A program made the translations under genes and the position numbers. Shown one piece after another: positions 10,008 to 42,558 of a stretch of 64,000 bases of DNA (position 1 is its first letter; every line of letters begins with the position of its first letter). Where the stretch lies: contig JBBRYZ010000001.1 of assembly GCA_038237165.1 (NCBI GenBank), forward strand, positions 30,199 to 94,198, written 5' to 3'. The DNA comes from Bacteroidales bacterium. Its GTDB lineage: Bacteria > Bacteroidota > Bacteroidia > Bacteroidales > UBA4417. Below the pieces are notes generated by a model that did not search any database, was not told where the DNA came from, and was given only the letters and a program-made list of their open reading frames with translations.

Positions 10008-10023
10008 TGAAAGGAAAACGATT

Positions 10024-10788
10024 ATGTTAATCAAAGCAAAAACATTAAAAGGCTATAAATTAGATACTGAAGATGGCGAAATAGGTAATGTTAAAGAATT
10101 CTATTTCGACGACAAGCACTGGGCAATTCGCTATCTGGTTGTCGACACAGCAAACTGGCTCACTGGCAGAAGAGTATTGATTTCACCCTATGCATTGGCT
10201 TCTGTAAATCAGGAAGCAAAAAACATCGGCATTAGTTTGAGTAAAAAACAGATCGAGGGCAGTCCATCTCTGGAAAGCGACAGACCCGTATCAAAACAAT
10301 TTGAAACGGCTTACAATGGGTATTATGGATGGCCGGAATATTGGAGCGGCGCATACATGTGGGGGCCTTATACTTTTTTAAAGCGCGACAGCAAAGAATG
10401 GAAGGAACTAAAACACCAAGAGGAATCATGGAATCCCCATTTGCGCAGCACCAATGATGTGATTGGCCACAATATTCAAGCTAGCAATGGCGAAATAGGT
10501 CATGTAGAGGACTTTATAATTGATGATGAAACCTGGGCAATTCGTTATCTGATTATAGATACTAAAAACTGGTGGGGCGGAAAGAAAGTCTTGGTTTCGC
10601 CTCAATGGATTGATCATGTTAGTTGGGAAGAAATGAAAGTGTTCGTGAATCTTTCCCGTGAGAGTATTAAGCAGTCACCGGAATATTCAGAGGAGTTTCT
10701 GCTAACCCGCGATTTTGAGACCGATTTGCATCAACATTACAATCGCAAGGGATATTGGGTCGATGAATCTGCTGCTCATAAGCTTTAA
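10024..10788 (+). CDS. Tandem PRC-barrel domain protein
   Basis: Two copies of the DGEIG.V.DF..DD..WAIRYL..DT motif typical of PRC-barrel domains. Confidence 0.7.
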   Translation: MLIKAKTLKGYKLDTEDGEIGNVKEFYFDDKHWAIRYLVVDTANWLTGRRVLISPYALASVNQEAKNIGISLSKKQIEGSPSLESDRPVSKQFETAYNGYYGWPEYWSGAYMWGPYTFLKRDSKEWKELKHQEESWNPHLRSTNDVIGHNIQASNGEIGHVEDFIIDDETWAIRYLIIDTKNWWGGKKVLVSPQWIDHVSWEEMKVFVNLSRESIKQSPEYSEEFLLTRDFETDLHQHYNRKGYWVDESAAHKL

Positions 10789-10872
10789 CTATGAAGCAAA
10801 TATGAGAAAGAGTTTTCTCACCCAATTGACTTATTAAAACCCAGCATAAAAATAACAAGAAAGGAATCAATC

Positions 10873-25885: not shown

Positions 25886-27576
25886 CGGTTAAGTGTTAGA
25901 ATTGTATATCTGTGTAGCTCCTTTTTTCTTATTAATTTCCGAAACCTACTGTTATATTATTTTACTTTTCAATTTCAATAAGCCTCAAGAGCTGTGCACC
26001 GACTGGAGCTCCAACGACTCCAGATGCATTATTGCCATCCACTATCTTTATCTCTTCCTCCGTTAACTCATATAACTCATAAACCATCTTGTCAATTTCC
26101 TTATCCGTATTATCAATCTGTGCCTTTATTTGCTGAGCTATGGCACATTCCTGCATAAAGTAAACTTCCCATTCCGCTTCCTCGCTAAAGCTGAGTTTTA
26201 CTTTCTTTTTGGTGAGCACTGTTATAAATTCTTTATAGGTAAGCAGGTACCAGTTTTGCAGTTTATTTTGCAATGGCAATGGAGCCAGCGGGGCATGCTC
26301 CGCTGTCTCCATTGTCGAAAAGAATTTGCGCTGGATGGTGCGCTGGAATTTGCCTGATACTTCCTGCAGTTGTTTGTTGAGGGAAAGCATTAGGTCGGCT
26401 TTTCCAATAAAAGGTTGTTGATTAAAAAGTGAAATTTCCTTGATAGGAAATTTCCTTAGATCAACTAAAATAATCTTCGGAAACAACTTTCTAACAGATT
26501 TAGCAGTATTTTTCATGAAATAGTATGATAGTAGGCTACTATTAATGATTGTTAGAATATATTTTAAAGATATATCTGAATTTTCCTTTTCCAATATTGC
26601 AATATTACTTCTGTTATATAAATACAATTCATCAGTGTAGGTGGAAATTAAACATTTTGGGTAATTCCTTGTGATCTCCTTAACTATAATTTTCTTTCCA
26701 TCAAAAAGATTAAATGTTCTTGGTTCTGCTAGGTTATTGCCATACTTCAAATACAAACCCGGCCAATTTGTAAAATAGCGACCGACATCCTTGCCATCTA
26801 AATAATTGTGTGTATTTTTCATCTAATTTAAAATTAGAATCATAAGGTCTATTAATTACATCTTCAGCTGTATGTATTGGATCACCTTTGCCTTTTTCAT
26901 ATGCTTGTAACCCTGCTTTTATTTCTACAAGATTATTTAAGAACTCAGAATTAACTGCTATTTTGTAATTCAATTCATCTGCTTCATCATCTAAAAATAC
27001 TTTAAATTCAAAACCTTGATTATTGCGGAATTCTTGCTGATTCTTAGAGTGCGAAAGGTAAAATTCATAACCATTATTCATAAATATATCAACCTTGTTA
27101 TCAATTTTAATGTTTTCATTTTCGGCTGTAAGAATCACAGTTTCCACATTAACACCTTCAAAAGAGAATCCTTTCAGATTTATAATTTGATTCAACTTAC
27201 AATTCTCAAGAAGAAAACTTCTTAAGTCTTCTCCTGAATAAACCATCAGCCAAGCATTCGGTATTATTAATCCAAATTTTCCTTTCACTTTTAGTAGATG
27301 CACTTTTAGTAGATGCACGGCCTTTTCTATGAATAATAAATATGTATTTAGTTGATATTTAGCAGATTCATAATTATCTATAAAAAACCTTTTTTCTACC
27401 ATATTAAAATTGTCTCTTGCAAAAACATACGGCGGATTTCCAACCACCACATCAAAGCCACCCTTATATTCAGTGCGGAAAGCATGCTCAACAGTGCAGT
27501 AGAAGTCTGCGATAAAGGAGCTTGCTCCTTTGAAAACGGAATCGGGCACATTGGCACTAGTACTCCTGTGCCCGAG

Positions 27577-28071
27577 TTCCGGCAAACCGTGCTTTATCCT
27601 GTTATTCTGTATGTAATTTATAGTATTGTTCAGTTGCTCTTCGGTGGTAATTTTTTTTTGTCCGAATTTCTGTGTCCACAGGTGATTTTGAGTAGCTCCT
27701 CTTCCATGCGCAGGAGCATGCTCCTGCTCCTGCATGTGCGCTGCCGAGGGAGCATGCTCCCTCGTTCCGCTCGTAGCGACGGGGATAGTCCTGCCCATGG
27801 CGATATTGCAGGCACGGGCGCTCATACTTTTTATCTTCTGCACTATAGGTACCAATTCCACATCTACGCATACCAACGCAAGGTGCATATGGTCGCTACA
27901 AATATTGTAGGCAAGTATATTCAGATTATCCTTTTTAACAATATCAGCAACAACAGTGGTTACTATTTCCTCCTCTTCGGCCGACAACCACACGGGTACT
28001 TCTAACTTCACGAAATTATCGAACATACGCTGCGAATACCTCGAATTATGTGTTGCAGTAGTAATATGCCA
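27577..28071 (-). mobile_element. IS200/RAYT-like HUH (Y1) transposase domain embedded in-frame in the RM ORF
   Basis: Residues WHITT...(HUH = H-M-H, codons 27883-27891)...HLWTQKF...NYIQNNRIKHGL (Tyr codon 27613-27615). The domain lies between the MTase segments EFPQVF and GGFDVVVGNPPY, with no stop codons and in the same frame. Confidence 0.7.
27710..27763. repeat. Pair of perfect 18-bp GC-rich palindromes (GCAGGAGCATGCTCCTGC and GAGGGAGCATGCTCCCTC)
   Basis: Read directly at 27710-27727 and 27746-27763. Related imperfect copies are at 27514-27531 and 26288-26303. Local GC is far above the surrounding AT-rich gene. Confidence 0.9.
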
Positions 28072-30337
28072 TGTCTTTTTTGCTTTTTCGACAAACACCT
28101 GTGGAAATTCCTTTTGCCAATTAAATGCTTTATAGCCGGACACAGAAGGATCGTCAATCAGCGAGTTGCCACATTTAATATTGTTATTCAGGTCGTTCAG
28201 CTTGCGGTTGGGCTGGGCGGTGCTTAGCCAGTGGGAGAGCTTGGCTATTTCGACACTTTCCTCGTTTATATCAACGCCAAACAAATTGTTTTCGAGTATG
28301 CTCTTTTCTGTATCGGTCAGCACCATGGCATCGCCGAAAAGTTTGGCCTGCAGTTCGTCAATAGTGCGGTGTTCGGTAATAAGGTAATCGAGCGCCTGGT
28401 TCATGAATGCCCCCGATCCGCTGGCCGGGGTCGCAGATGGTAAGCCACAAAAGCCAGTTGCGGTAAGTAGTAAGCTTATCGAATAAAGGCTGTATGGTTT
28501 TCTTTGTTCGTTTGCGATCGGTTATATAGTCTTCCTCATTCAGCTGCAGCTCTGCTTTTTTATCAGCACAAAGTTTGCCAACAGTATTATCAACAATATA
28601 CTTGGTAATGTATTTGGGCGTGTAAAACACACCGTCCTTTTTGCGCTTGGTCTTGGTTTTGTCAATTTCCTGCCCTTCGAGCTGTGCTTTTATTTCATCC
28701 AGTTCATTCAGCGAGTTTTCGAAAATATGTCCCAGGATATTTACATCTACTTCGATGTCGAAATCATATTCCGAAAGCTTCAGCGTATAACGGTAAAGCA
28801 ATTCGTCATCAATTTTCAAAGCATCCAACAATTCATCCGATTTAAACAAACCTCCGTTGTACGCGAATACATCGTAGCGTTTGCCTTTAAAGCCGGTATT
28901 AAGGTATTCGAAATACTTTTTAAAGCGGGCATAAAGCGCAATATCAACATCCTTGTCCTGCAAGTCGCGCCAATCGTTAAGTATCAGCCTTACCGAGTTA
29001 GGCGGCAACAGTTGCCTGTCCTCGGCAAAAAACAGGAAAAGAAAACGATCAAGTAATTTCTGCGATTTCTTGAATAGTGTCAGCGCATCGTTCTGAGTGT
29101 TAAGGGCCACCAGGTTCCGGTGCAGCTCGCGCTTGAAAAGCGAATAATCGTTGTAAAGATTTTTGGTAATGGCATCTTCGTGGCTTATAGATTCGTCCTT
29201 GATGCGCTTTGGAAGACCTTTGGCAATACTGTCGTACGACAGGCACAGCCACAGCAATTCAAAATCCTTTTCGTTAAGAGTAAACAGGTTAAATTCGAGA
29301 TGCTCGATGGCATTATCGATATAAAAACGGAGCTTCTCGAAATTGGAAGTTATAACATACACACAATCGGACTGGTTGTTCTTATAGCCGAAAGCCTGAT
29401 TTTCAATCTTGCTGAGATCGGTAGTTTCAGTTCCTTTCAGCTCTATAACTGCTATAACCACAGGAGCAATTGCCAATGCATGCTACTTTGCCAGTAGTAT
29501 TGCACCATCCGCCTTTTTACTGTCCTTTACATTTTTGTATTCAGTAGTAATGTTAAATCCAGGTGTCGGATTTTTAGTATAGCCCAGCACCGTAACAAAC
29601 AAGTCGATAAGGAATTCGCCCTGGTATTGCTCCTCCTTGCTATTGCGTATGTTTTCCTGTATGGCGAGATTATGAAAATGAGCCTTGAATTTAGCATAGG
29701 CAGCCGCAACCGTCTGCTTATCCATCGTTTTCTGATACTTACTGATTACTGAATTTTGAAAAAAGGACATATAGTTTGCCGGTTCGGAAAGTGCGTGAAT
29801 TAATGGGGATAAATTTAAGGGATATTTGGACTATAGTATACGGAATTTAGAATTGTTTTTATTTTTCCCGTTGTTAACCAACACCAATGCTTGTAAGGGT
29901 TACGATCCCGATAGCAAACGGGGCAAGCATCGCAAAGTTTAAAAAATTGACTCCTTCAGGATTTCTGAACTTATACCCTCTGGTAGGTATCGGCTTCAAA
30001 TTGACAACAAGCAAATATACAAACTTGTTGCATTTAATTACCTGTTATAAGTTTCTTAATCGATTTCCATAATCGCAGCCTAAGGATACCATTTATAGTC
30101 CGGAACACTCAGGACAGCAGTAGGCAATTCAATTCCAGCAAACTTAATTTTTAACGTATCACTAAGAATTCCATTTTCGAAACACAGTTTTGCACAAGGA
30201 TGTCATATTATCTGATGCCTTTTCAGATGCTGGTTCCAAAATAAGCAGCCTGATAAATCCGATGAACGAAAAATCTTTTTTTTACTTAAACCAACAGTAG
30301 AATTATCATTGTTGATTGGTATTACTGTATTCTCATT

Positions 30338-32281
30338 TTACCCACGCTCTTTGAACTTCTTTATCCCTTCATTCAGGAATTTTATATATCCCTCTATGCT
30401 TGAATCATAACCCTTTGGGGGTGTAAGAAGGTTTCCATCATGGTCGGTTAAAGCATAAAATGGTTGTGAATTGGTTTTGAAATGTGTGGTTTCAAAATCG
30501 CTCCATTTATTACCTATGGTTTTCACTTTGTTGTTAGTAATTTTAGAAGTGTATTGTTCGTTAACAGGCAATTCAGTTTTGTCATCAACATAGAGTGAAA
30601 TCAACACATAGTCATTGCTGAGCAATCCCAGTACTGTTTTATCGCTCCACACATTGTCTTCCATTTTGCGGCAATTAACGCAACTCCAGCCTGTGAAATC
30701 CAGTATTACCGGTCTATTTACTTTTATAGCGTAGGCTATCCCTTTATCATAATCGTGGAAACAATTCAGGTTATGAGGACAGTGAAATTCATTATCCGAA
30801 GTGGTTGCCACAGCAATTGTATTGTCAGAGGCAGGCGCACTTTGCAGATTCCAGCCTTCGGTATAAAACGAAGGAGGAGGAAAGCCGCTGATGAGTTTCA
30901 ATGGCGCTCCAAACATGCCGGGAATCAGGTACACAACAAAACCCAGTACTAAAATGCCTGACAACAAGCCGGGGATAGAGGTGTTTTTCTGTTCGCCATC
31001 GTGCGGAAGCCTTAATTTACCGAGCAGATAAAAGCCGAGTAATCCGAAAATTACAATCCATAAAGCTATAAATACTTCCCTGGTCAATATGCCCCAATGG
31101 TAAGCCAGATCGACGGAAGATAAGAATTTCAGCGCAAAGGCAAGTTCAATAAATCCAAGCACAACTTTTACCGAATTGAGCCATCCTCCAGATTTTGGAA
31201 GCGAATTGAGCCATCCCGGGAATGCAGCGAAAAGTGCAAATGGAAGTGCCAACGCCAGCGCAAAACCAAACATACCTATGGCAGGTCCAGCGACATCGCC
31301 GTTAACAGCTGCCTGAACCAAAAGACTTCCGATGATAGGTCCTGTACATGAGAATGATACCAGTGAAAGCGTGAATGCCATGAAAAAAATCCCGATCAAT
31401 CCACCTTTATCAGCTGCTTTATCCGAGGCATCCAGCCATTTGTGGGGAAGCGTAATTTCGAAAGCACCAAAAAATGAAACTGCGAAAACGACGAATATGA
31501 CGAAAAATGCCAGGTTCATAACGCCGTTGCTTGCCAGCGCATTTAAGGCATCAGGTCCAAGTGAAAGGGAAATGGCTAATCCGAGTGTAACATAAATTAC
31601 AATGATAGAAACGGCGTAGATTATCGCATTTCGTATGCCTTTGGCTTTCGTTTTGCTTTGTTTGGTAAAGTAACTTACCGTAAGCGGGAGCATAGGGAAT
31701 ACGCAGGGTGTGAGCAGCGCCAGAAGTCCACCAACAAAACCGGCAATAAAAATAGCCCATGAAGTTAAGCCCGCGCCCGCAGGTACTATAACCACGGGAG
31801 CAGAACTGATTTGTGCCAACTCCGGAGAGGCTTTTACGTTAATTGTAAATTCATTGGTTTCCGGAGGCAAGCACATTTCGTCGTTACAAACCATAAAAGT
31901 TACTTCGGCATTAACGGCAAAACTGTTATTATCTGAAACAGCTATTTTCTGAACAAATAAAGCCTCTTTTTCAAAATAGGAAACAGGCATATTCTGGTAG
32001 GCAGGTTCGGGATGGGTAAATGGTTTATCCTCCCGGGTACTGCCAACGATTTGGTATGATTGATTTGGTTTAAAGCTGAAAGCAGTTGCAACAGGTCCGT
32101 TTTTTATATTCTGCGTCTGGCTGTAAATGTGCCATCCTTTCTCGATATTTGCCCTGAAAGTAATAAGGGCGGTATCGGGCGAAGGTCGGGTAACCGATGT
32201 CTGCCATTTTACCGGTTCGTGTACCTGCGAATATGCAAGTACCGAAAACAGTAATAGAATTGATGTGATGAGTGCTTTCAT
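30338..32281 (-). CDS. dsbD: Thiol:disulfide interchange protein DsbD (CcdA-type membrane core + C-terminal thioredoxin domain)
   Basis: 647-aa ORF: signal peptide, N-terminal DsbD-alpha-like domain, a polytopic core with LTPCVFPMLP and SCTGPI motifs, and a C-terminal WCVNC thioredoxin fold. Confidence 0.88.
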   Translation of the reverse strand: MKALITSILLLFSVLAYSQVHEPVKWQTSVTRPSPDTALITFRANIEKGWHIYSQTQNIKNGPVATAFSFKPNQSYQIVGSTREDKPFTHPEPAYQNMPVSYFEKEALFVQKIAVSDNNSFAVNAEVTFMVCNDEMCLPPETNEFTINVKASPELAQISSAPVVIVPAGAGLTSWAIFIAGFVGGLLALLTPCVFPMLPLTVSYFTKQSKTKAKGIRNAIIYAVSIIVIYVTLGLAISLSLGPDALNALASNGVMNLAFFVIFVVFAVSFFGAFEITLPHKWLDASDKAADKGGLIGIFFMAFTLSLVSFSCTGPIIGSLLVQAAVNGDVAGPAIGMFGFALALALPFALFAAFPGWLNSLPKSGGWLNSVKVVLGFIELAFALKFLSSVDLAYHWGILTREVFIALWIVIFGLLGFYLLGKLRLPHDGEQKNTSIPGLLSGILVLGFVVYLIPGMFGAPLKLISGFPPPSFYTEGWNLQSAPASDNTIAVATTSDNEFHCPHNLNCFHDYDKGIAYAIKVNRPVILDFTGWSCVNCRKMEDNVWSDKTVLGLLSNDYVLISLYVDDKTELPVNEQYTSKITNNKVKTIGNKWSDFETTHFKTNSQPFYALTDHDGNLLTPPKGYDSSIEGYIKFLNEGIKKFKERG

Positions 32282-32438: not shown

Positions 32439-32756
32439 CTATATTAATTTGTTCAATTTGTTCTGAAATTCTTTTTTGGGAGCTGCACCGGTTATTTTAT
32501 CGACTATCTCCCCGTTTTTGAAGAAAAGTATGGTAGGGATATTCCGGATTCCAAACCTGGCTGCAAGTTCCTGTTCTTTATCCACATCCACTTTTCCAAC
32601 TATTGCCCTACCCTCGTAATCAATATGAATTTCATCCAGAATAGGTCCGACGATTTTACAAGGGCCACACCATTGTGCCCAGAAATCGATAATTACAGGT
32701 TGATTTGATTGCAGTACCACTTCATCGAAGTTGCCTGCAGTTAATTCTTTTGCCAT
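32439..32756 (-). CDS. trxA: Thioredoxin
   Basis: 105-aa ORF with the canonical WAQWCGPCK active site. Confidence 0.93.
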   Translation of the reverse strand: MAKELTAGNFDEVVLQSNQPVIIDFWAQWCGPCKIVGPILDEIHIDYEGRAIVGKVDVDKEQELAARFGIRNIPTILFFKNGEIVDKITGAAPKKEFQNKLNKLI

Positions 32757-32828: not shown

Positions 32829-33233
32829 TTACAATCCTTTTTTTGCAGATTTCAAGGCGGAAGCAAGTTCCTGGTCGGATTTAGCTAAACTGGCCTGGCT
32901 GATGAATGCTTTGGTTTTGGCATTAAAAAAATACACAACGCCAGTAGCCTTGTAACGTTGAATTGCCTGATCTAAGCCGTATTTCTTCAGTTCTTCAGCC
33001 GATTTCTTAGTTGTATTGGCATCGGTAACATCGTTAGCCACAAATTGAAAGGCCATGTCTTTGTTGTTTTCCATCAAAGCTCCCATAGCCCGCTGACCAT
33101 TCTGCTGACAAACGGGACACCAGTCAGCTTTGTTGATAACTGCAATTACTTTAGGCCCCGACTGAGCGAATGCTGAAACTGAGACTAACAGTACGAGAAC
33201 TGCACTTACGATAATTGATTTTACTGTTTTCAT
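32829..33233 (-). CDS. Secreted thioredoxin-like protein (CPVC motif)
   Basis: 134-aa ORF with a signal peptide and a WCPVC redox-type motif. Confidence 0.5.
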   Translation of the reverse strand: MKTVKSIIVSAVLVLLVSVSAFAQSGPKVIAVINKADWCPVCQQNGQRAMGALMENNKDMAFQFVANDVTDANTTKKSAEELKKYGLDQAIQRYKATGVVYFFNAKTKAFISQASLAKSDQELASALKSAKKGL

Positions 33234-33387
33234 GATTTTAGTTTTTTGAAATTGTTAAATGATTGCTGATTAATTACAATCATATTGTCGCAGAAAAAAC
33301 AATTCCTGACAAAAAAGATAATTTTATTTCAGATATTTTTCAAAAAAATTAATTATCATACAGTTGCATACGGATCATAGTAAAATA

Positions 33388-33419
33388 AAACAGGCATTAG
33401 TGGGTACTAATGCCTGTTT
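33388..33419 (-). terminator. Rho-independent terminator after the DsrE-like gene
   Basis: Stem aacaggcattag / ctaatgcctgtt (12 bp). On the minus strand it is followed by ttttatttta. Confidence 0.7.
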
Positions 33420-33440: not shown

Positions 33441-33869
33441 CTAAAACGTCAGTACTTTTGCCCCGCTTTTCAGGTAATCCGTCAATGGTTTCCCCATTCC
33501 TTTAACATCAAAGCCTAATTTTCGTAGATCATCAGCAATTCCATAGGCATTGGCGCATGCAACGCAAGCTTCAATCACTACACCATCATCTTGCATGGCT
33601 TTCAGTTTTTCCTGAATTTTTATGTTTTCAGAAGTCAGTTTTGCGGAAGGCCCCCAGATTATCAGGGTCACATCTTTAAACCATCCCTGGGTTTTTGCTG
33701 CGTGCGTGTACATCAGAGCCACGCGTTCGGCAACATAAGGGTCATCACTTGCCCATAGTACAACAAGTTTATCGGAAGGATCTGACGTGGGCACTGCCTG
33801 TGCCTGCAAACCTGAGTGACTAAGCATCAAAAGACAAATTAATATAATTAATGACAGTTTTGCTTTCAT
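33441..33869 (-). CDS. Secreted DsrE/DsrF-like family protein
   Basis: 142-aa ORF with a signal peptide and a DsrE-like pattern (LVVLWASDDP...IIWGPS...IEACVACANAYG). Confidence 0.6.
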   Translation of the reverse strand: MKAKLSLIILICLLMLSHSGLQAQAVPTSDPSDKLVVLWASDDPYVAERVALMYTHAAKTQGWFKDVTLIIWGPSAKLTSENIKIQEKLKAMQDDGVVIEACVACANAYGIADDLRKLGFDVKGMGKPLTDYLKSGAKVLTF

Positions 33870-33935: not shown

Positions 33936-34664
33936 TCACAGTGTAATGAAATCCTTAATCCAACCCGAGGCAGGATTTGCTTTAATAAATTCAGGCTCGG
34001 CGAATTGTTCTATTTTCCCTTCGTTCATTATCGCTATATGCGTGCCAAGAGTAAAAGCCTCGTGTAAATCATGCGTAACCATTATAAAGGTAAGACCCAA
34101 TTCACTATGCATTTGTTTGATTTCATTTTGCAGGTTTCGGCGCGTAATGTTATCAAGTGCACCAAACGGTTCGTCCATCAGCACAATTTTCGGGTTGGCG
34201 GCCAAAGCCCTTGCTACGCCGACGCGCTGCTGTTGCCCTCCGCTTAGCTGATCAGGATAATTGTCGAGTTGTTGCTCATCAAATCCCATCATTGTAGCCA
34301 GCTCGGATACCCGCTGATTTTGTGCCTCTTTTTGATTCTCCGAAATACTCAGAACAAATTCCATATTTTGCTTTACCGAAAGGTGCGGAAAAAGGCCGCC
34401 TTGCTGTATTACGTAACCTATATTCCGCCGGAGCTGTATTTTATCCCAATGCCGGATGTCAGTTCCCATTACTTTTACTTGTCCTGAATCAAAATCGGTC
34501 ATGCCATTGATCAGTCGCAGCAAAGTTGTTTTGCCGCAACCGCTTGGACCGATGATTGTGATAAAAGCGCCTTCCGGAATAGTTAACGAAACAGAACGCA
34601 GTACCGGGTTTCCGGCCTGGTACGATTTTGTTACGCCTGATATTTCGATGATCGGATTAACCAT
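33936..34664 (-). CDS. ABC transporter ATP-binding protein, OpuC/EgtV-like (quaternary amine family)
   Basis: Walker A GPSGCGKTT, signature LSGGQQQR and Walker B LMDEPFGALD. Adjacent to the fused permease-SBP gene. Confidence 0.85.
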   Translation of the reverse strand: MVNPIIEISGVTKSYQAGNPVLRSVSLTIPEGAFITIIGPSGCGKTTLLRLINGMTDFDSGQVKVMGTDIRHWDKIQLRRNIGYVIQQGGLFPHLSVKQNMEFVLSISENQKEAQNQRVSELATMMGFDEQQLDNYPDQLSGGQQQRVGVARALAANPKIVLMDEPFGALDNITRRNLQNEIKQMHSELGLTFIMVTHDLHEAFTLGTHIAIMNEGKIEQFAEPEFIKANPASGWIKDFITL

Positions 34665-34673
34665 TTTGCATTT

Positions 34674-36212
34674 TTAATTCAGTAAGTTATTTGACTTTAA
34701 AAACGAAGCGGCTACTTCCTCAGGTGTTTTATTGGCTATCTCCACTTCATAATTTAGTTCCAACATCTTTGCATCATCAATTGTGCCGTTCAAACGACTG
34801 AGCAAATCAACCAGTTCAGGATAGTGCAATAGTATTTCATTCCTCACTACAATGCCTGCCTGGTATGCCGGGAAGAAATTCTTATCGTCGCGAAGCACAC
34901 GCAACTTCATTTGCCGGATACGCGAATCGGTTGAAAATGCATTAATAACATCCACAGTGTGGTTTTCGAGAGCCTGGAATTTCAGGTTCACATCAAGTTC
35001 AACTTTGTTTTTAAAATTGAAAGGATACACTGCCGAAAGTCCTTTAAAGCCATCTTCGCGTTCGTAAAAATCAAATTCAGCGCCAAATATAAACTGATTA
35101 CTTTTTGATGCCAGGTCCGAAAATGTTTTGATGTTTTCCTTGTTGGCTATGTCTTCGGGCAAAGCCAGCGTAAAGGTGTTGTTGAAACCAAAACGGCAGG
35201 CCCAGCTGAGTCCGAATTTTTCAGTATATGCCGTTTTTAACTCTGAATATAAGCTGTCGGGATTGCGGATTTGTGGTTTCTTCAGTACAAACAACCATGC
35301 GGTGCCGGTATATTCGGGATAAATATCAATTTCGCCCGACAATAACGCCGGTTGAATATTGGAAGTGCCCCCACCGATTCCAAACATTCGTTTTACAGGT
35401 ATATCCGTATTCTTTTCAATCATTTGCGAAATAATTTCACCCAGGATATACTGTTCGGCTGTTGGTTTTGAAGCAACAACAATTGTTCTTTTGGTGGTAA
35501 CAGCTGATTTTGACAGAATGGTGAAACCAATTGCCAGTGTTACTATTGCCAAACCGGCATAGGCAAGCCAGCGACGGTATCTGGATGAATGATGTTTGCT
35601 GTTTTTTAATGACTTCTCGAAAAATCCGATTGTAAGATCGGTAACTAGTGCCAGCAAAGCCACGGAAATTGAGCCTGCAAGAATAAGTGAGGAATTGTTG
35701 GTGTTAATACCCCTGTAAATTGCCTGACCCAAACCACCGGCACCAATAAAGGATGCAAGTCCGGCAAGAGCAATGGTCATAACAACCATAGTGCGGAACC
35801 CGCTCAGGATAGTTGGAAAAGCAAGAGGCCAGCGAATCCTTAGGAATATCTGCATTGGAGTAGCACCCATGCCTTTTGCAGCATCCAACAAACGCGGGTC
35901 CACTTCAATTAACCCGGTATAGGTATTCCGGATCATAGGAAGCAGGCCGTAAATAACAAGAACCACCAGTGCATTTAAAAAACCTATTCCTATTAAAGGG
36001 ATGAAGAGGCCAAACATGGCTATCGAAGGAATGGTATAGAGAAAATTTACCACTCCCAATACCAGGTTCCGGATTCGATTATACCGGACCAGCGCAATAC
36101 CCGAACTTACTCCAATAACAACAATTATCAATATGGCTGTAAGCGACAGCACAATATGCTGGAGGAGCAGTTCAAACAAATAATCCTTTCGCTGGAGTAA
36201 AAATGACCACAT
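34674..36212 (-). CDS. ABC transporter permease fused to substrate-binding domain, OpuB/OpuC/EgtU-like
   Basis: 512-aa ORF. The N-terminal ~210 aa form a BPD-type permease (EAA loop LDAAKGMGATPMQIF). The C-terminal ~290 aa form a glycine-betaine/choline-type SBP (IYPEYTGTAW). Confidence 0.8.
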   Translation of the reverse strand: MWSFLLQRKDYLFELLLQHIVLSLTAILIIVVIGVSSGIALVRYNRIRNLVLGVVNFLYTIPSIAMFGLFIPLIGIGFLNALVVLVIYGLLPMIRNTYTGLIEVDPRLLDAAKGMGATPMQIFLRIRWPLAFPTILSGFRTMVVMTIALAGLASFIGAGGLGQAIYRGINTNNSSLILAGSISVALLALVTDLTIGFFEKSLKNSKHHSSRYRRWLAYAGLAIVTLAIGFTILSKSAVTTKRTIVVASKPTAEQYILGEIISQMIEKNTDIPVKRMFGIGGGTSNIQPALLSGEIDIYPEYTGTAWLFVLKKPQIRNPDSLYSELKTAYTEKFGLSWACRFGFNNTFTLALPEDIANKENIKTFSDLASKSNQFIFGAEFDFYEREDGFKGLSAVYPFNFKNKVELDVNLKFQALENHTVDVINAFSTDSRIRQMKLRVLRDDKNFFPAYQAGIVVRNEILLHYPELVDLLSRLNGTIDDAKMLELNYEVEIANKTPEEVAASFLKSNNLLN

Positions 36213-36232
36213 ACAGAATATCCTGATTTAAA

Positions 36233-37198
36233 CTATCTTTCTTTCACCCAAAGCGAATCTGTAAAATAATTCCGGCTATCGGAAAAATGTTGTTCTACCC
36301 CGAATCCATTGCTTGTCGCTAATGTTTCAATCTTTTTCAAATCAAATTTACGCGAAAGTTCCATATAAACTGTTTCCCATTGGTTAAAGCGGAAATTTTT
36401 TGCCAGGGATTCAATATGCACAGTCTGATCTTTTGTTGAAACCAAAAAGCTTTTAACCGCGCCTGTTTGAGGATTGTAATCTATATGATGTTTAAAATTG
36501 CTGATGTCAAAATCGGCACCCAGTTCCCTGTTCAGGCGGATAAGATGATTGAGGTTAAATCGCTGGGTGTGGCCATGTGGATCATCATAAGCTTTCAAAA
36601 TTACATCAGGCGATTTTTTGAGGTCGAAACCAATCATAACTTTATCGCCTTTGTGTGCAAATTCGGAAAGCTGGCTTAAAAACAAATTCAATTCTTCATC
36701 CGGGAAATTGCCAATATTGGAACCCAGGAATAAAATTACTTTCCGTAGTCCGGAATAACCGTTAAGTTGTTTCATAACCCGGAAAAAATCGCCGGTCTGG
36801 GCATTCACTTTTAGTGAAGGGATTTCCTTTGCAAGGCTTTCAACCAGTTCGTTGTTGGCTTTCGGGCTTATATCGATAGGTATATATTTGAGGCCTGAAG
36901 ATCGGCTAATCATCGCATTCAGCAATATTTTCGTTTTCAATCCATCGCCCGAACCCAGTTCAATTACCTCGAAGCCTGAAGTACCTTTTATAAATGCATC
37001 AATAATCTGCTCTTTACGGGTTGAAAATATTTCATATTCGCAATTGGTGAGATAATATTCAGGCATGTTCATAATGTCCTGGAAAATGCTGCTGCCGATA
37101 TCATCGTAAAAATATTTCGACAATAGAAATTTTGGATTGGATGACAGACCGCTCAATGTATCGGTAGCCAGTTCGGAAAGAATTGTTAGTTGTTCCAT
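36233..37198 (-). CDS. eanA: L-histidine N-alpha-methyltransferase (EgtD/EanA family; hercynine synthase)
   Basis: 321-aa ORF with KYFYDDIGSSIFQDIMNMPEYYLTNCE, IELGSGDG and FLGSNIGNF, typical of EgtD-family methyltransferases. Confidence 0.85.
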   Translation of the reverse strand: MEQLTILSELATDTLSGLSSNPKFLLSKYFYDDIGSSIFQDIMNMPEYYLTNCEYEIFSTRKEQIIDAFIKGTSGFEVIELGSGDGLKTKILLNAMISRSSGLKYIPIDISPKANNELVESLAKEIPSLKVNAQTGDFFRVMKQLNGYSGLRKVILFLGSNIGNFPDEELNLFLSQLSEFAHKGDKVMIGFDLKKSPDVILKAYDDPHGHTQRFNLNHLIRLNRELGADFDISNFKHHIDYNPQTGAVKSFLVSTKDQTVHIESLAKNFRFNQWETVYMELSRKFDLKKIETLATSNGFGVEQHFSDSRNYFTDSLWVKER

Positions 37199-37202
37199 GG
37201 TT

Positions 37203-38510
37203 TTACTTTTCTACTTTGTAATGTTCCGGTATGCCTGTTTCATAAGGATTGCCAGGATCGTTGCTCCATTCGAACCAACCGCCGTCGTAAACTGAAACTT
37301 TGGGCCAGCCCATCAGCCAGGCGTTGAACCAAGCTTCACTGCCACGCCAACCGGTACCACAATAGAAAGCTAAATGCTTGTCGGGCGTGATACCGTTTTT
37401 TATCCAGGTGTCGGCTATCTCGTGAAACTCGCGTGTGGTGTTATCCACATTGCGGTAGTTTTCCATGTGATAAGCGTCGCTTCCGCAATCGGCAAAAACA
37501 GCACCTGGAATTCGTCCTTTTGCTTTGATGTAATTGTACCCGCTTACCTCGCCAATATATTCAGGCCAGCTTCGTACACAAACAAGTTCTGCATTATTCG
37601 CTTTCAATATTTCTTTGGCTTCGGGCGTATCAACTGCAAGTTCAGGATGAGCCGGAATTACAGCGCCGAAACTATCCACAGGCCTCTTTGGTTCATCGGC
37701 ATAATCTGTTTCAAATCCGTCATCCAGCCACGATTGAAAACCACCGTTAAGAATTCTGACATCTTTCACCCCGGCATACATCATGATAAATGCATTGCGG
37801 ATGGCCCCGATATCGCCGGCTGCACTGCCCGGAAATTCATCGGCATTATCAGGATGCATAAATTTACCATACAGCACAACGGTAGTGTCAGCGGTGATGC
37901 CATGATCTGTTAGGGCTTTCCTAAGTTCTTCCGGACTTCGCCGGTTCCAGGTTTCGGGTGCTTCGAGAGCCAGCGTATCCATGTCGATAGCCCCTGGAAT
38001 ATGGCCACTCAGGTAAGCATCGCGGTTGCGATAATGGGCATGTATAACCACGAATTTATTATTGCTGTAATTTTGAGGTTCACCACCTTTAATCAACGAA
38101 TTTACCCATTCAGCAGAAACAAGATGTTGAAACCGTTCCAGTTTTTGCATGGGTAAATCCGGATTATTAGTCCATTCAGTGGCGAAATCATTGTAACTGA
38201 AAACCTTGTTGTATCCCGAAGCGATAAACCTCGATGCTACTTTTTCCGTTTCCTCCTGCCGGTATCCGTAAACTACAATTGTATGTTCCGGTAATAGTTG
38301 CTTTTGCCTCACAACTTCTATCCAGTCGATATATTTCGTCCATTTTTCAGGAAGGCTGCGTGCGCCGGTAATATGTCCTCCGCTAGCTTCATTTTGAAGT
38401 GGCCAGCCATTGTAGGCTTCAACAGGCCGGACATCAACGATTTGAACATTGGATTCTGCAAGCAAAGCCTCTAATTCGGAGGTGGAAATTGATTGAACGG
38501 TGTTTTTCAA
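37203..38510 (-). CDS. eanB: Multi-rhodanese sulfurtransferase, EanB-like (anaerobic ergothioneine synthase)
   Basis: 435-aa ORF with several rhodanese modules and a C-terminal active-site loop YCGTGWRGSE. It lies 4 bp upstream of the EgtD-like gene, the arrangement that defines the EanA/EanB pathway. Confidence 0.7.
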   Translation of the reverse strand: MKNTVQSISTSELEALLAESNVQIVDVRPVEAYNGWPLQNEASGGHITGARSLPEKWTKYIDWIEVVRQKQLLPEHTIVVYGYRQEETEKVASRFIASGYNKVFSYNDFATEWTNNPDLPMQKLERFQHLVSAEWVNSLIKGGEPQNYSNNKFVVIHAHYRNRDAYLSGHIPGAIDMDTLALEAPETWNRRSPEELRKALTDHGITADTTVVLYGKFMHPDNADEFPGSAAGDIGAIRNAFIMMYAGVKDVRILNGGFQSWLDDGFETDYADEPKRPVDSFGAVIPAHPELAVDTPEAKEILKANNAELVCVRSWPEYIGEVSGYNYIKAKGRIPGAVFADCGSDAYHMENYRNVDNTTREFHEIADTWIKNGITPDKHLAFYCGTGWRGSEAWFNAWLMGWPKVSVYDGGWFEWSNDPGNPYETGIPEHYKVEK

Positions 38511-38547: not shown

Positions 38548-38832
38548 TTAGTCTTTAGTGATCTCAACGCCTTTCCAGAAAGCTACGCGGTCCTTGATAC
38601 CCTTTGCCAAGTAGCTCGGATCGGGATAATACCATACCGCATCCTCGTTTTTCTTGCCGTCAACATCAAGGGTGTAATACGATGCGGTGCCTTTCCAATG
38701 GCAAACAGTGTGTGTGTCGCTGTTTTTAAGATAGGATTTGTTTACTGATTCAACCGGGAAATATTGATTTCCCTCCACATTAACTGTGTCATTGCTCTCG
38801 GCTATGATTTTGCCGTTCCAAATTGCTTTCAT
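38548..38832 (-). CDS. DUF427 domain protein
   Basis: 94-aa ORF. The pattern A.WNG..IAES......EGN.YFP...V......S...T.C.WKG.A.YY is typical of DUF427. Confidence 0.7.
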   Translation of the reverse strand: MKAIWNGKIIAESNDTVNVEGNQYFPVESVNKSYLKNSDTHTVCHWKGTASYYTLDVDGKKNEDAVWYYPDPSYLAKGIKDRVAFWKGVEITKD

Positions 38833-38863: not shown

Positions 38864-39442
38864 TTAGTAAGGAACTCCGTTTTCACGTTGTTTTTTGAAT
38901 GCCTCAGTGTACCAAACAAATTCATCGATGAACCGCTTGGCTGAAGATTCAGTTCTTTCATTTTTCGGGGTTAAATCATCACTAAATATACTGCCTATCA
39001 ATGGGAAAGGCAAACTTGATGAAATAGAAGGCATTCCAAGTTCGGCTAGTACTGACCTCAGATGTTCTGCCGCTCTTACTCCGCCGAAAGAACCGGAGGA
39101 ATAGGATGCGATGGCAGAAGGCTTGAAATAATATTCCCGCTGAAAATGGTCTAAAGTGTTTTTTAATGCAGGCGGAAGACTATGGTTGTATTCGCCGGTC
39201 ACCACCAGAAAACCATCAGAATGTTTGAAATAATCCGATATGATCTGCATGTTTTCAGGAGCTGTACCGGGAGCATACTCTTTGTGCATTTTATCCAACA
39301 ATGGAAGTTTATAAACCAGGGGATCGATGAAATGAACAGTGATTCCACGTTCAAGCAATTTTTTCTCCAGGTATTTTCCCGCTAAAATCCCTTGGCGATC
39401 ACTCCGGACTGAGCCATAAATTATGCTGATAGTAAGTTCCAT
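38864..39442 (-). CDS. NAD(P)H-dependent FMN reductase family oxidoreductase
   Basis: 192-aa flavodoxin-like ORF (GSVRSDRQG, TGEYNHSLPPALKN). Confidence 0.75.
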   Translation of the reverse strand: MELTISIIYGSVRSDRQGILAGKYLEKKLLERGITVHFIDPLVYKLPLLDKMHKEYAPGTAPENMQIISDYFKHSDGFLVVTGEYNHSLPPALKNTLDHFQREYYFKPSAIASYSSGSFGGVRAAEHLRSVLAELGMPSISSSLPFPLIGSIFSDDLTPKNERTESSAKRFIDEFVWYTEAFKKQRENGVPY

Positions 39443-39513
39443 TTCTAATTTGATTGTTAAGATTAGTCGGAGAAAATCAAAAACCTGACAACCGTTTTAT
39501 GCAAATTTCCATT

Positions 39514-40113
39514 TTAATGATGAACGACTATTTTGCCTTTTAATTCAGTTGGTTTACCCGTTTTAGATATAGTAAAGATATAGATTCCTGCCTGAAGATT
39601 GCTTGCATCAAAATCAAAATTGTCATCATTTGTATATGAATTAGAAACAAATGAACCGCTTTGGCTGAAAAGTTTCAGTTGATGGTTTTCATAGTTTTTA
39701 TTTTTAAAATATATCTTCGCCTGGCTGGTAACTGGATTAGGGCGAACCTGGTATCCACCATTTTGGAGATCTGTTATTTCGAGGGAAACTACTTTTGAAT
39801 AGCCATTGTTACCCAGGTCGAGCCGGTAATGGTTTTTTAGGTTGTTAACCGGACTTTCATCGATAAAATCATAAGGCCTGGCGAAGGAAGAGCTTCCGCA
39901 AACACCAGATATTTCACCAATTTGTGTAAAAGACAAATTATCAGTTGACCGGAATATTTTGGTTCCTTCACAGGTACTTCCTGATGCAATAACCCAACGA
40001 AGGAATATTTTTCCATTGTATTCATTGGCCGTAAAATTGTCGAGAATGGTGGCTTCCTGGGCAAAAAGACCGGTTCCTGCATACAAAGCCACTAAGAAGA
40101 TTGAAAATTTCAT
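39514..40113 (-). CDS. Secreted protein with T9SS type A C-terminal sorting domain
   Basis: A signal peptide starts at MKFSIFLVALYAG (ATG 40113; the ORF stays open to 40164). The C-terminal ~70 aa (YQVRPNP...LQAGIYIFTISK...KGKIVV) match the Por secretion tail pattern. Confidence 0.7.
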   Translation of the reverse strand: MKFSIFLVALYAGTGLFAQEATILDNFTANEYNGKIFLRWVIASGSTCEGTKIFRSTDNLSFTQIGEISGVCGSSSFARPYDFIDESPVNNLKNHYRLDLGNNGYSKVVSLEITDLQNGGYQVRPNPVTSQAKIYFKNKNYENHQLKLFSQSGSFVSNSYTNDDNFDFDASNLQAGIYIFTISKTGKPTELKGKIVVHH

Positions 40114-40475
40114 TCCTCTATTGATAGCACCAGGATAAATATATTTTGAGGATATGTTTTCCATAATAGGAATTTTCTATGCATTAAAACATTTATTGAG
40201 TAGAATAGGTTCATTTATAACACAATCGTAGTATTAATACGATTAGTCGCCAGATTCTTACTTCCTGACAAAGAAATCTGAGTAATTATCAAAAAAAAGT
40301 TCCAAAAGAAAAATAAAACACCGGCAAACATACTTGGCGCACTGTTGCCGGTGAAACTATAATTATGGTATAAAAACGGAATTAACGCTTGAGCTTATTA
40401 AAATTTACAATTAAAGCGCAAGAAAAAAGGGTTTAAGATTTATTGTTGTGATCACACTAATTGAAGTTTACTCAA

Positions 40476-40745
40476 TTATTTTGATACACTCTCTAATTTA
40501 TCAGCTATCTTTTTCTTTAATAATTCAAGATCTATTTCAGGATTGTTAGGTTTGTGAATAGCCGCAATACCTTTTTCTAAAAAATAACTTTGTTTTTCGT
40601 ACCTGGTGCAGGCGTTACACATGGATTTGTGCATCTTCAGCTGAAGCTTTTCAGAAAAGGATAATTTGAAATGAATCTTCTTCTCAATAAGTTCGGTGGC
40701 TTTGAGGCAGGACAGAAATAAGAAATGCATTATTTGTTTTACCAT
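40476..40745 (-). CDS. Putative zinc-binding (ZAS-type) anti-sigma factor
   Basis: 89-aa ORF 4 bp downstream of the ECF sigma gene. It contains the H-x3-C-x2-C motif (HKSMCNAC). Confidence 0.5.
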   Translation of the reverse strand: MVKQIMHFLFLSCLKATELIEKKIHFKLSFSEKLQLKMHKSMCNACTRYEKQSYFLEKGIAAIHKPNNPEIDLELLKKKIADKLESVSK

Positions 40746-40749
40746 GATT

Positions 40750-41301
40750 TTAAATTTTAAACCAATTATTTTCTACACAATCTCTTAACTGTAATTTTGC
40801 CCTATGTATAATCTGCCACAGGTTAGTCGGAGCAATTTCCAATTCCTGACAAATATCCTCACCATTTTTATCCGTGAGGTATTTTAAACGTACACAAGTA
40901 TTCCATTTTTCAGGTAACGCATCCAGGCATTTCTTCATAACTTCCTGAAATCCTGGATTATCCAACAATTGTTCATCTTCATTAATCCAGCTAACAGGTT
41001 TTTTATCAGAACGCCAATCGCCATCTGAATTAAAGAAATTTGAAAAAGATTGACTTTCGATATTTAACGGTTGATTTACCTTTTTGCGGTAGTAATCAAT
41101 AATCTTATGATTCAGGATTGAGAACAACCAGGTTTTGGGTGAACTTTCCGCTTTAAATGATTCTATCTTTTCGGCAGCAGCCATAAAAGTGTCCTGTACA
41201 AGGTCTTTTGCCTGGTCCGGATTGGAGACTTTGAAGTATGCCCAGTTAAAGAGTTCAGTGGCATATGTTTCGACCCATTCTGAAAGTTGTTTGTTTTTCA
41301 T
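40750..41301 (-). CDS. ECF-subfamily RNA polymerase sigma-70 factor
   Basis: 183-aa ORF with region 2 (DLVQDTFMAA, TWLFSILNHKIIDYYRKK) and region 4 (NLWQIIHRAKLQLR). Confidence 0.85.
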   Translation of the reverse strand: MKNKQLSEWVETYATELFNWAYFKVSNPDQAKDLVQDTFMAAAEKIESFKAESSPKTWLFSILNHKIIDYYRKKVNQPLNIESQSFSNFFNSDGDWRSDKKPVSWINEDEQLLDNPGFQEVMKKCLDALPEKWNTCVRLKYLTDKNGEDICQELEIAPTNLWQIIHRAKLQLRDCVENNWFKI

Positions 41302-41674: not shown

Positions 41675-42097
41675 TTATTCTTTTACGAATAATGCCACAA
41701 CTATTCCGAAGATGATATGCCCCATGATACCACCAACCATGATAAGCGCCAAACTACCTTCAATTGGTGGCATTCCACCAAACATTGAGCCCATAATTGC
41801 CATCGCTATCTGGGCAAAGATGAAAGCGGCAAATCCAAAAATGACTCCTTTTAAAAGGTTATTACTTACTTTTTTCAATACATTGATAAAAACGAGGGCG
41901 TAGGTAAGCGCGAAAATTATACCAATCATAAAATGCATTATCCAGCCGATAGCGATTGGAAAGCCCATCGCCATTGATAGCATGGCAGGCAGGTTCATTT
42001 TGGGGATTCCCATCATTGGGGCAATCATCATTACCATTGTCATTACTGCTGTAGCAACTATGCCACCGATTAACGATTGTGTGATCTTGTTTGACAT
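41675..42097 (-). CDS. Hypothetical 4-TM membrane protein
   Basis: 140-aa strongly hydrophobic ORF. No family assigned with confidence. Confidence 0.5.
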   Translation of the reverse strand: MSNKITQSLIGGIVATAVMTMVMMIAPMMGIPKMNLPAMLSMAMGFPIAIGWIMHFMIGIIFALTYALVFINVLKKVSNNLLKGVIFGFAAFIFAQIAMAIMGSMFGGMPPIEGSLALIMVGGIMGHIIFGIVVALFVKE

Positions 42098-42216: not shown

Positions 42217-42558
42217 TTACATTTTTTTCTGACATTCAGCAGTACATACATGCCCTTTTTCTCCGTGTGCATATACATGGTTGCCATCTTTACAGGCAGC
42301 AGTACAAACATGATCTTTCATCTCCATTGAAGTTGCCGAAGTTGAATTCATAGTTTTACAAGCTGCGGCACAAACGTGTCCTTTTTCGCCATGAGCGTAA
42401 ACATGATTGCCGTTGGCACATGCGCTTGTACATACATGGTCTTTGAGTTGAACTGTTTCAGTCTTTGTTTGCTTCTTTTCTGTTTTGGTTGAGGATTGAG
42501 CATTTGCTGCAAACGAAAGGCCAGCGATAATCGCGATTAAAAAGAACAATTTTCTCAT
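42217..42558 (-). CDS. Secreted Cys/His-rich protein with two ~30-aa HVCxxxC repeats (putative metal-binding)
   Basis: Signal peptide followed by a duplicated module KDHVCT.AC..GNHVYAHGEKGHVC.A.C, giving 8 Cys and 8 His in ~75 aa. Confidence 0.6.
   Translation of the reverse strand: MRKLFFLIAIIAGLSFAANAQSSTKTEKKQTKTETVQLKDHVCTSACANGNHVYAHGEKGHVCAAACKTMNSTSATSMEMKDHVCTAACKDGNHVYAHGEKGHVCTAECQKKM

Follow-up and report, generated by a model that had tools for sequence, protein, structure and literature searches.

A 64,000-nucleotide stretch of a Bacteroidales genome (contig JBBRYZ010000001.1, positions 30,199 to 94,198; hereafter the window, in whose own numbering positions are given) carries on its minus strand four consecutive genes encoding a predicted anaerobic ergothioneine synthesis pair, EanB and EanA, and a transporter of the ATP-binding cassette (ABC) class resembling the ergothioneine importer EgtUV. 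We propose that this region is probably a stress-inducible module with which an anaerobic Bacteroidales bacterium both makes and imports the antioxidant ergothioneine. The individual parts all belong to known families; as far as we searched the literature, the new element is the combination, and we did not find a description of an ean-egtUV operon in searchable papers (paywalled papers lay outside the scope of that search, and a prior mention is possible). The initial annotation of this DNA had remarked that producers and importers are mostly discussed separately, and the papers we searched do treat producers and EgtU scavengers apart. The ean-egtUV operon unites production and scavenging, until now two subjects, in one predicted unit.

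In the scheme that we favor, oxidative or disulfide stress would free an extracytoplasmic function (ECF) sigma factor from its zinc anti-sigma factor, and a single transcript would run from an FMN reductase gene through a DsrE-like gene. EanA would trimethylate histidine to hercynine, and EanB, by means of a persulfide on Cys384, would put sulfur at the imidazole C2 of hercynine to give ergothioneine without oxygen. EgtUV would bring in ergothioneine from the periplasm, made by neighbors or leaked by the cell itself, and thiol demand would switch on synthesis and uptake together.

The predicted ergothioneine synthesis enzymes

The initial annotation had described four tightly packed minus-strand genes, and we confirmed them at exactly the coordinates it had assigned: eanB (37203..38510), eanA (36233..37198), egtU (34674..36212) and egtV (33936..34664), with intergenic gaps of 4, 20 and 9 bp in that order. 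Family matches for these genes and their neighbors are strong (E-values from 1e-24 to 1e-207), and they are not chance open reading frames (ORFs).

The first of the four genes, eanB, begins with a TTG start and encodes a 435-residue rhodanese-type sulfurtransferase with three Rhodanese stretches recognized by Pfam. In a sequence search of the PDB, this protein scored 693 bits against Chlorobium limicola EanB (6KTV, 6H98); the next relatives were Escherichia coli YnjE, at 294 bits, and thiosulfate/mercaptopyruvate sulfurtransferases and other rhodaneses, at no more than 82 bits. Its alignment with 6KTV shows 68.8% identity across 423 residues with zero gaps. The cysteine of its CGTGWRG loop, C384, aligns with the catalytic persulfide-carrying Cys412 of the C. 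limicola enzyme, and Y325 aligns with the essential Tyr353; each sits at a position 3 below its 6KTV chain index, in agreement with the published Cys412 and Tyr353 numbering, and 6KW0, the entry for the Y353F variant, marks the tyrosine column. The protein, with this loop, had been called EanB-like, a view that the bit scores and the retained Cys412 and Tyr353 equivalents bear out. By bit score, EanB is clearly its best match, and generic sulfurtransferases acting on thiosulfate or 3-mercaptopyruvate are not the group to which it belongs. Judged by its sequence, the window protein is a true EanB.

We scanned one genome per species and recovered at least 589 genomes with an EanB relative, from which the 80 best loci (67-82% identity) were analyzed. 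These come mostly from Bacteroidales, Marinilabiliales, Prolixibacteraceae and Lentimicrobium metagenome-assembled genomes (MAGs), with a few Chlorobiota and Ignavibacteria, and nearly all hosts are uncultured and from anoxic or low-oxygen habitats.

The second gene, eanA, starts 4 bp past eanB, and the two genes are neighbors in 41 of 52 related loci. It encodes a 321-residue protein predicted to be an EgtD-family histidine N-alpha-trimethyltransferase that forms hercynine. The protein matches Methyltransf_33 (PF10017) with 323.5 bits over residues 11-317 and Mycobacterium tuberculosis EgtD (7SCF) with 161 bits. The histidine site of the M. tuberculosis enzyme comprises Y39, F47, Y56, T163, N166, A205, Y206, T213, E282 and S284 (PMC8593015); nine of these ten residues are identical in the window protein (Y31, F39, Y48, N164, A203, Y204, T211, E280 and S282), the sole departure being N161 in place of T163. 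The family match and the histidine site uphold the original designation of this gene as EanA-like.

The closest characterized counterpart of the pair is EanA/EanB of C. limicola, with which the window shares the two-enzyme logic, the adjacency of the genes, the gapless EanB alignment and an EgtD-family EanA. It differs from Chlorobium-type loci in that its EanA belongs to a different EgtD subclade, approximately 31-33% identical to theirs, and in having the importer, DUF427 and FMN reductase genes beside eanB, none of which is present in the locus of a Chlorobium sp. MAG (L079). Among the 80 loci, two EanA classes adjoin eanB: 26 loci have the window type, at 44-84% identity, and 15 have a distant EgtD clade, at 28-33%. 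The transporter is present with the window-type class only. Six Salinimicrobium loci have eanB without an adjacent EanA.

The transporter and its likely substrate

The egtU gene encodes a 512-residue protein in which an ABC permease (BPD_transp_1, residues 31-203) is fused to a periplasmic solute-binding domain (OpuAC, residues 243-506; the binding domain spans approximately residues 240-510). The egtV gene, always next after egtU in related loci, encodes a 242-residue ATPase with a nucleotide-binding domain only; Pfam recognizes ABC_tran and no CBS domains. Osmoregulated OpuA/OpuC ATPases typically carry C-terminal CBS domains. Type I ABC systems in which the solute-binding domain is tethered are importers, and on this basis EgtUV would import rather than export.

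The placement of EgtU rests on PDB bit scores and on pocket residues. Its best match, at 296 bits and with 50.6% identity over the binding domain, is Helicobacter pylori EgtUC (8DP6/8DP7), 8DP7 being the ergothioneine-bound form (PMC12922746). Weaker matches are engineered sensors derived from Thermoanaerobacter OpuBC (approximately 200 bits), OpuCC (168), Listeria BilEB (167), pneumococcal EgtUC (158-166) and AfProX (165). A score of 296 bits against the H. pylori protein, compared with approximately 165 against pneumococcal EgtUC, OpuCC and AfProX, indicates that the window EgtU is of the H. pylori type; by the same scores, generic betaine binders are at least as close to it as the pneumococcal type is, and it falls outside the pneumococcal subcluster.

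We mapped 16 ligand-site positions from the pneumococcal pocket (PMC9732360) and three pneumococcal-to-H. pylori equivalences, I243/P296, T274/G327 and P401/I451 (PMC12922746), the remainder being placed by motif register and partly inferred. With the mapping so defined, 13 of the 16 positions are identical to those of H. pylori EgtU, namely those at the thione and carboxylate (K249, P250, G282), the imidazole (T283, D381), the carboxylate clamp (T304, R385, D387) and the cage (Y301, N345, F426, Y450), together with F343. The other three are conservative changes (S297 to T251, Y390 to F347 and I451 to V408, H. pylori residue first). In an alignment of 118 EgtU homologues (52-94% identical to the window protein), 11 pocket positions never vary, a twelfth does so only once, and a few other substitutions are seen at T283. 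The three sites that differ between the window and H. pylori proteins toggle between the two states among these homologues, which places the H. pylori pocket inside the natural variation of the window clade.

The initial annotation had likened the permease-binding-domain fusion and its ATPase to EgtUV. The architecture stands, and the pocket matches that of ergothioneine-bound H. pylori EgtU; the protein is of the H. pylori rather than the pneumococcal type. It shares with Streptococcus pneumoniae EgtU (SPD_1642-1643; 7TXK/7TXL) and the Firmicutes subcluster (BilEB, 4Z7E) the architecture, the aromatic cage, the Lys/Arg clamp and the Glu/Asp-imidazole contact, whereas it scores only approximately 160-166 bits against the pneumococcal protein and lacks its distinguishing residues, with T251 for G244, Y301/F343 for the F293/Y337 Tyr-to-Phe switch, P250 for I243 and G282 for T274. 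These departures are the same as those of H. pylori EgtU. Compared with choline and glycine-betaine binders, the pocket sides with H. pylori EgtU, which is the best match by approximately 130 bits over OpuCC, OpuBC and ProX.

EgtU is 98% identical between the window and the related locus L001, where EanB and EanA are 82-84% identical. We considered recent transfer of EgtU as the cause and rejected it, as nucleotide identity is uniform at 84% over 4.4 kb; the protein identity reflects a very conserved permease domain.

Linkage of the transporter to ean genes recurs beyond the window. A tblastn search with the window proteins found the colinear order eanB-eanA-egtU-egtV in 10 of the 80 eanB loci. 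In the 52 loci whose sequence reaches 4.5 kb or more past eanB, the transporter is present in seven, all seven with the window-type EanA; put the other way, 7 of the 26 loci with this EanA class have the transporter. Approaching from the transporter side, we examined the contigs of eight EgtU homologues and found full-length eanB and eanA beside egtUV in five. The cultured Prolixibacter sp. NT017 (GCA_009617875.1, contig BLAV01000001.1, approximately 927-943 kb) has DUF427-eanB-eanA-egtU-egtV, and the closest NCBI relative (L089) has the same five-gene core with identical gene lengths and different flanks. Full-length eanB and eanA also lie beside egtUV on a JGI contig. A Logan contig has the order MarR-AhpC-DUF427-x-eanB-FMN_red-eanA-egtU-egtV-FMN_red, and a Marinimicrobia MAG (L082 7001-15554) has egtU-egtV-x-eanB-eanA, where x is zf-CDGSH/Glu_synthase-like, followed by a cysteine desulfurase (Aminotran_5) and SufE. 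In L088 (5720-9320, homologue P0086), eanA-egtU-egtV is intact and eanB is an 80-residue rhodanese fragment. Two EgtU homologues stand apart from ean genes: one, 69% identical, lies with OsmC, and the other, a 53% identical Sebaldella protein, lies with NmrA and MarR.

Many genomes, with protein identities of 52-89%, preserve the order and spacing of the ean-egtUV genes. The linkage is a recurrent minority architecture and not unique to the window genome, and the fact that it crosses phyla and survives rearrangement points to a shared substrate rather than to inherited synteny. This genomic context is independent support for the H. pylori-type EgtU clade handling ergothioneine or a very close relative. 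Two side observations concern these loci: the cysteine desulfurase and SufE of the Marinimicrobia MAG could plausibly supply the sulfur of the EanB persulfide in vivo, and L088 may show synthesis decaying with uptake retained.

Which substrate the transporter carries can be weighed against this background. It might import hercynine (trimethylhistidine), feeding EanB, saving three S-adenosylmethionine per molecule and re-sulfurizing hercynine derived from oxidized ergothioneine. EanB works on hercynine, which an importer encoded in its operon could deliver. Trimethylhistidine from outside the cell is an efficient ergothioneine source in E. coli expressing a synthase (PMC9516567), hercynine has been described as a marker of ergothioneine oxidation (PMC12922746), and an H. 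pylori-type pocket lacks the pneumococcal determinants of high ergothioneine selectivity. However, the thione contacts of the H. pylori protein, P296 and G327, with I451 nearby, are kept as P250, G282 and V408 and are nearly invariant across the clade. The only characterized relatives bind ergothioneine, and the pneumococcal protein discriminates against hercynine approximately 10,000-fold. The L088 locus, which retains eanA and egtUV with only a fragment of eanB, is likewise a poor fit to a hercynine feed. Given the conservation of the thione-contacting residues, we consider hercynine uptake unlikely.

The transporter might instead be an ordinary OpuB/OpuC-type importer of compatible solutes (glycine betaine, choline or carnitine), or a broad betaine importer, that merely sits beside eanBA. 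Databases label its homologues "osmoprotectant transport system permease"; its NCBIfam matches are to OsmF, ProW and ChoW, all below threshold; the Lys/Arg clamp and aromatic cage are common to glycine-betaine binders; and there are the two sampled homologues without ean genes. Against this, linkage to eanB and eanA in two phyla and two gene orders is more than chance adjacency accounts for, and the ergothioneine-bound H. pylori protein leads the structural relatives by the margin given above. At the position of K249, one aligned OpuBC-derived sequence has isoleucine, and after the Lys-Pro pair it has phenylalanine where the window protein has threonine. EgtV lacks CBS domains, and the operon otherwise consists of redox rather than osmotic-stress genes. 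Linkage across phyla, the ranking of PDB matches, the missing CBS domains and the redox context together make a generic osmoprotectant role, in our estimate, unlikely as well, hercynine uptake being the main rival. Among salvage of ergothioneine, uptake of a precursor and transport of something else, we therefore favor ergothioneine as the probable transported substrate.

The window differs from known systems in where its importer is encoded. H. pylori is an ergothioneine non-producer that scavenges dietary ergothioneine from its host. Its EgtUV has the same permease-binding-domain fusion, separate ATPase and, at 13 of 16 positions, the same pocket, whereas the window and most sampled members of its clade encode the importer inside a producer's biosynthetic operon. 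Recapture of a self-made solute has precedents in TeaABC (ectoine, Halomonas elongata) and OpuE (proline, Bacillus subtilis), where a producer likewise has a high-affinity importer for its own product and the logic is one of salvage. To our knowledge, however, those importers are not encoded in the biosynthetic operon, and their trigger is osmotic rather than redox. The arrangement suggests that members of anoxic communities (in sediments, sludge and biofilms, for instance) may exchange, leak and recapture ergothioneine, and the cultured Prolixibacter sp. NT017, with the same operon, offers an experimental handle.

The predicted operon and its candidate regulator

The four-gene operon of the initial annotation holds in that the four genes lie in one predicted unit, but the unit appears to be larger and to comprise seven genes, FMN reductase-DUF427-eanB-eanA-egtU-egtV-DsrE-like. 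Its first gene (38864..39442) encodes a 192-residue NADPH-dependent FMN reductase family protein (Pfam FMN_red, 102 bits) and its second (38548..38832) a 94-residue DUF427 protein (Pfam PF04248, 110 bits). Its probable last gene (33441..33869), 66 bp past egtV, encodes a 142-residue DsrE-like secreted protein with an N-terminal signal peptide (Pfam DsrE, 38 bits). All of these are on the minus strand, and the gaps within the operon range from 4 to 66 bp. The sole strong minus-strand terminator, an intrinsic terminator with a 14-bp stem and a T-run (33388..33419), lies just past the DsrE-like gene and would close the operon; a terminator scan found nothing comparable on the minus strand between 39442 and 33441.

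Inspection of the intergenic DNA upstream brought out an ECF-type promoter motif. This motif, GTCAGG-N13-16-CGAC(T/A)A, occurs in 38 copies in the window and the 80 loci, compared with 0.3 in shuffled sequences. Four of these copies are in the window and the other 34 in L003-L077, with an additional copy in L081 (2098-2124). Every copy has a spacer of 14 or 15, the first block follows a T in 35 of the 38, and nearly all copies share the strand of eanB and lie 16-120 nt upstream of a same-strand ORF; the resulting consensus, TGTCAGG-N14/15-CGAC(T/A)A, was derived in this analysis alone. In the window, an exact TGTCAGG-N14-CGACTAATC copy (39461..39490, minus strand; motif 39464..39489) heads the ean/egt operon, 21 nt before the ATG of the FMN reductase gene. 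A second exact copy, also TGTCAGG-N14-CGACTAATC (40241..40270, minus strand; motif 40244..40269), lies approximately 77-79 nt before the gene for a secreted 216-residue protein with a type IX secretion C-terminal sorting domain (39514..40164, minus strand; Pfam Por_Secre_tail). The third, GTCAGG-N14-CGACAA (33285..33310, minus strand), is 51 nt before a 134-residue ORF described below, and the fourth, GTCAGG-N15-CGACTA (40824..40850, minus strand), lies within the 3' end of a sigma factor gene, 78 nt before an anti-sigma gene, a placement repeated in L009.

In other genomes, three loci have the motif before DUF427-eanB, and L016 has it directly before eanB. It is also found upstream of genes for FMN reductases, thioredoxin-domain proteins (five loci), a secreted AhpC/TSA peroxiredoxin (four loci), a 118-residue DsrE-like protein (five loci), glucose-6-phosphate dehydrogenase and a cysteine-dioxygenase-like protein. 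In Prolixibacter sp. NT017, it stands before the LysE-family gene that heads lysE-ndh2-like-DUF427-eanB-eanA-egtU-egtV. L016 also contains a fusion of EanB with an EanA-like methyltransferase domain in a single 749-residue ORF (10001-12250), with the motif 26 nt upstream. As far as sequence can tell, the layout of the motif and the genes downstream of it are those of an ECF-sigma thiol and oxidative-stress regulon, and the motif may be a first regulatory handle on the anaerobic pathway. An Rfam scan of the whole window found no riboswitch or other RNA family.

The genes could also be adjacent and yet uncoupled, with eanBA and egtUV transcribed and used independently. A sigma-70 consensus scan gives many sites inside genes (47, compared with approximately 30 expected), and roughly 85-90% of eanB loci have no adjacent transporter. 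Sigma-70-type scans are uninformative for Bacteroidota promoters, however, and the short gaps between the four genes, the lack of a credible terminator between them and the conservation of their order and spacing in divergent genomes all argue for coupling. We regard independent use as very improbable, and return to the proposal of a jointly controlled synthesis and uptake module.

The candidate regulator of this module lies upstream of it. An ECF-type sigma factor of 183 residues (40750..41301, minus strand; Pfam Sigma70_r2 and Sigma70_r4_2 only) is followed by a small cytoplasmic anti-sigma factor of 89 residues (40476..40745, minus strand) with a ZAS/RsrA-like ligand pattern, C13 and H39-x3-C43-x2-C46. 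These four residues are all invariant in the orthologues covering them, and their spacing is almost that of the zinc ligands C11, H37, C41 and C44 of Streptomyces RsrA. This sigma and anti-sigma pair is found within 10 kb of eanB in 9 of the 80 loci. From co-localization and gene content, we infer that this ECF sigma factor is the likely reader of the motif, with thiol oxidation as its signal.

The nearest analogies are the thiol-oxidative-stress system SigR-RsrA of Streptomyces and EcfO-Reo of Bacteroides fragilis, which resemble the window system in pairing an ECF sigma factor with a small cytoplasmic Cys/His anti-sigma factor and in a putative regulon of thioredoxins, peroxiredoxin, an NADPH supply enzyme and low-molecular-weight-thiol synthesis. 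The window system differs in that its anti-sigma factor has no sequence-level family match and no autoregulatory motif lies upstream of its sigma gene. Taken further, the analogy allows a larger module: an RsrA-like ECF switch for synthesis and re-uptake (with a LysE-type exporter in some genomes), DUF427 and FMN reductase as accessory enzymes (delivering sulfur to EanB or reducing oxidized ergothioneine, for example), the whole serving as an inducible redox buffer of anaerobic Bacteroidota and their relatives, and the H. pylori importer being a standalone offshoot of a transporter clade with its origin in the biosynthetic operons of producers. We put this forward tentatively, as a possibility that is more likely wrong than right.

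Several points weigh against a stress-inducible module for making and importing ergothioneine. Co-transcription of the seven genes is a prediction, and the motif was not found in the closest relative, L089, or in four other ean-linked loci. The link between sigma factor and motif is one of co-localization only, and ECF control is not universal. The motif is absent within 350 bp upstream of the 9 sigma genes examined, with the exception of one relaxed match in L049, so that autoregulation of the sigma gene by the motif was rejected; the anti-sigma factor has no zf-HC2 match and no Pfam match at an E-value of 0.01 or below. On the enzyme side, EanA scores below the threshold of the NCBIfam egtD equivalog TIGR03438 (280.9 bits, with a cut-off of 290.9). 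We read this near miss as an anaerobic-pathway clade diverging from a model built mainly on aerobic EgtD, and do not treat it as excluding a predicted EgtD function. On the transporter side, egtUV is missing beside eanB in most loci, and AfProX, which binds glycine betaine, has the Lys/Arg carboxylate clamp too. The absence of the pneumococcal-type determinants may mean lower affinity or relaxed specificity, as noted by Zhang et al. (PMC9732360), and the affinity of H. pylori EgtUC for ergothioneine is only moderate (Ka approximately 5e5 per M; PMC12922746).

Accessory and neighboring genes

To survey the company of eanB, we clustered, without bias, the ORFs from 4 kb upstream to 6 kb downstream of eanB in the 80 loci. 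The recurrent partners, almost all on the eanB strand, were EanA (51 loci), DUF427 (29), secreted AhpC/TSA (15), FMN reductase (13), a 537-residue Rieske/Glu_synthase-like flavoenzyme (12), a 286-residue protein with no family (12), EgtU and EgtV (9 each) and a LysE-like protein (7). The EgtUV transporter is one among several recurrent eanB accessories.

DUF427 is the most frequent accessory partner of eanB, commoner than the transporter: it is encoded within 5 kb of eanB in 35 of the 80 loci, directly upstream on the same strand in 23 of 77, and also in the differently ordered Logan and Prolixibacter loci. Its sole PDB relative is the uncharacterized 3DJM, and it has a single conserved cysteine. 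This long-standing domain of unknown function may be part of anaerobic ergothioneine synthesis or recycling, as may the recurrent FMN reductase, whose nearest PDB structures are generic FMN, quinone and chromate reductases; any role of either protein in the module is putative.

LysE-family genes, of the amino-acid exporter type, occur near eanB in L081 (2145-2756) and L006 (6433-7044), and the LysE-family protein is a candidate ergothioneine exporter paired with the importer. For production strains, leads would be the accessory genes, deletion of the importer and addition of the LysE-type exporter. The Rieske/Glu_synthase/FMN_dh-like flavoenzyme (approximately 537 residues) and the 286-residue protein recur downstream of ean genes, with regions of this kind also in L081 (9914-12497) and L082 (9455-11288), and a Rieske-TPP enzyme is found in 4 loci.

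The initial annotation had noted DsbD, thioredoxin, DsrE-like, DUF427 and FMN reductase genes beside the operon, and Pfam and NCBIfam matches place all of them there on the minus strand. Past the terminator, the third copy of the motif heads a unit that begins with the secreted 134-residue protein (32829..33233, minus strand), which carries a WCPVC motif, is thioredoxin-like by eye and has orthologues in L003, L023, L041 and L077. The unit possibly extends to the thioredoxin gene (32439..32756, minus strand) and the gene for a DsbD-type thiol:disulfide reductase (30338..32281, minus strand), both recognized by Pfam and NCBIfam; any co-regulation of these two genes with the ean/egt operon is putative. 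Pfam gave no match for the 134-residue CxxC protein or for the 118-residue DsrE-like protein of the related loci.

Farther from the operon, ORFs at 26734-29476 resemble a DNA methyltransferase or restriction-type enzyme (NPPY motif) with split reading frames, and an embedded segment resembles an IS200-type transposase (SDHMHLAL motif), which could be an insertion or a domain acquisition. On the other side, a secreted 113-residue protein (42217-42558) adjoins a DUF6789 membrane protein (41675-42097); the former has two near-identical Cys/His-rich repeats (HVCT..C..GNHVYAHGEKGHVC) and no Pfam match. A DUF6789 gene also follows egtV in Prolixibacter, and the ECF motif lies upstream of DUF6789 in L051.

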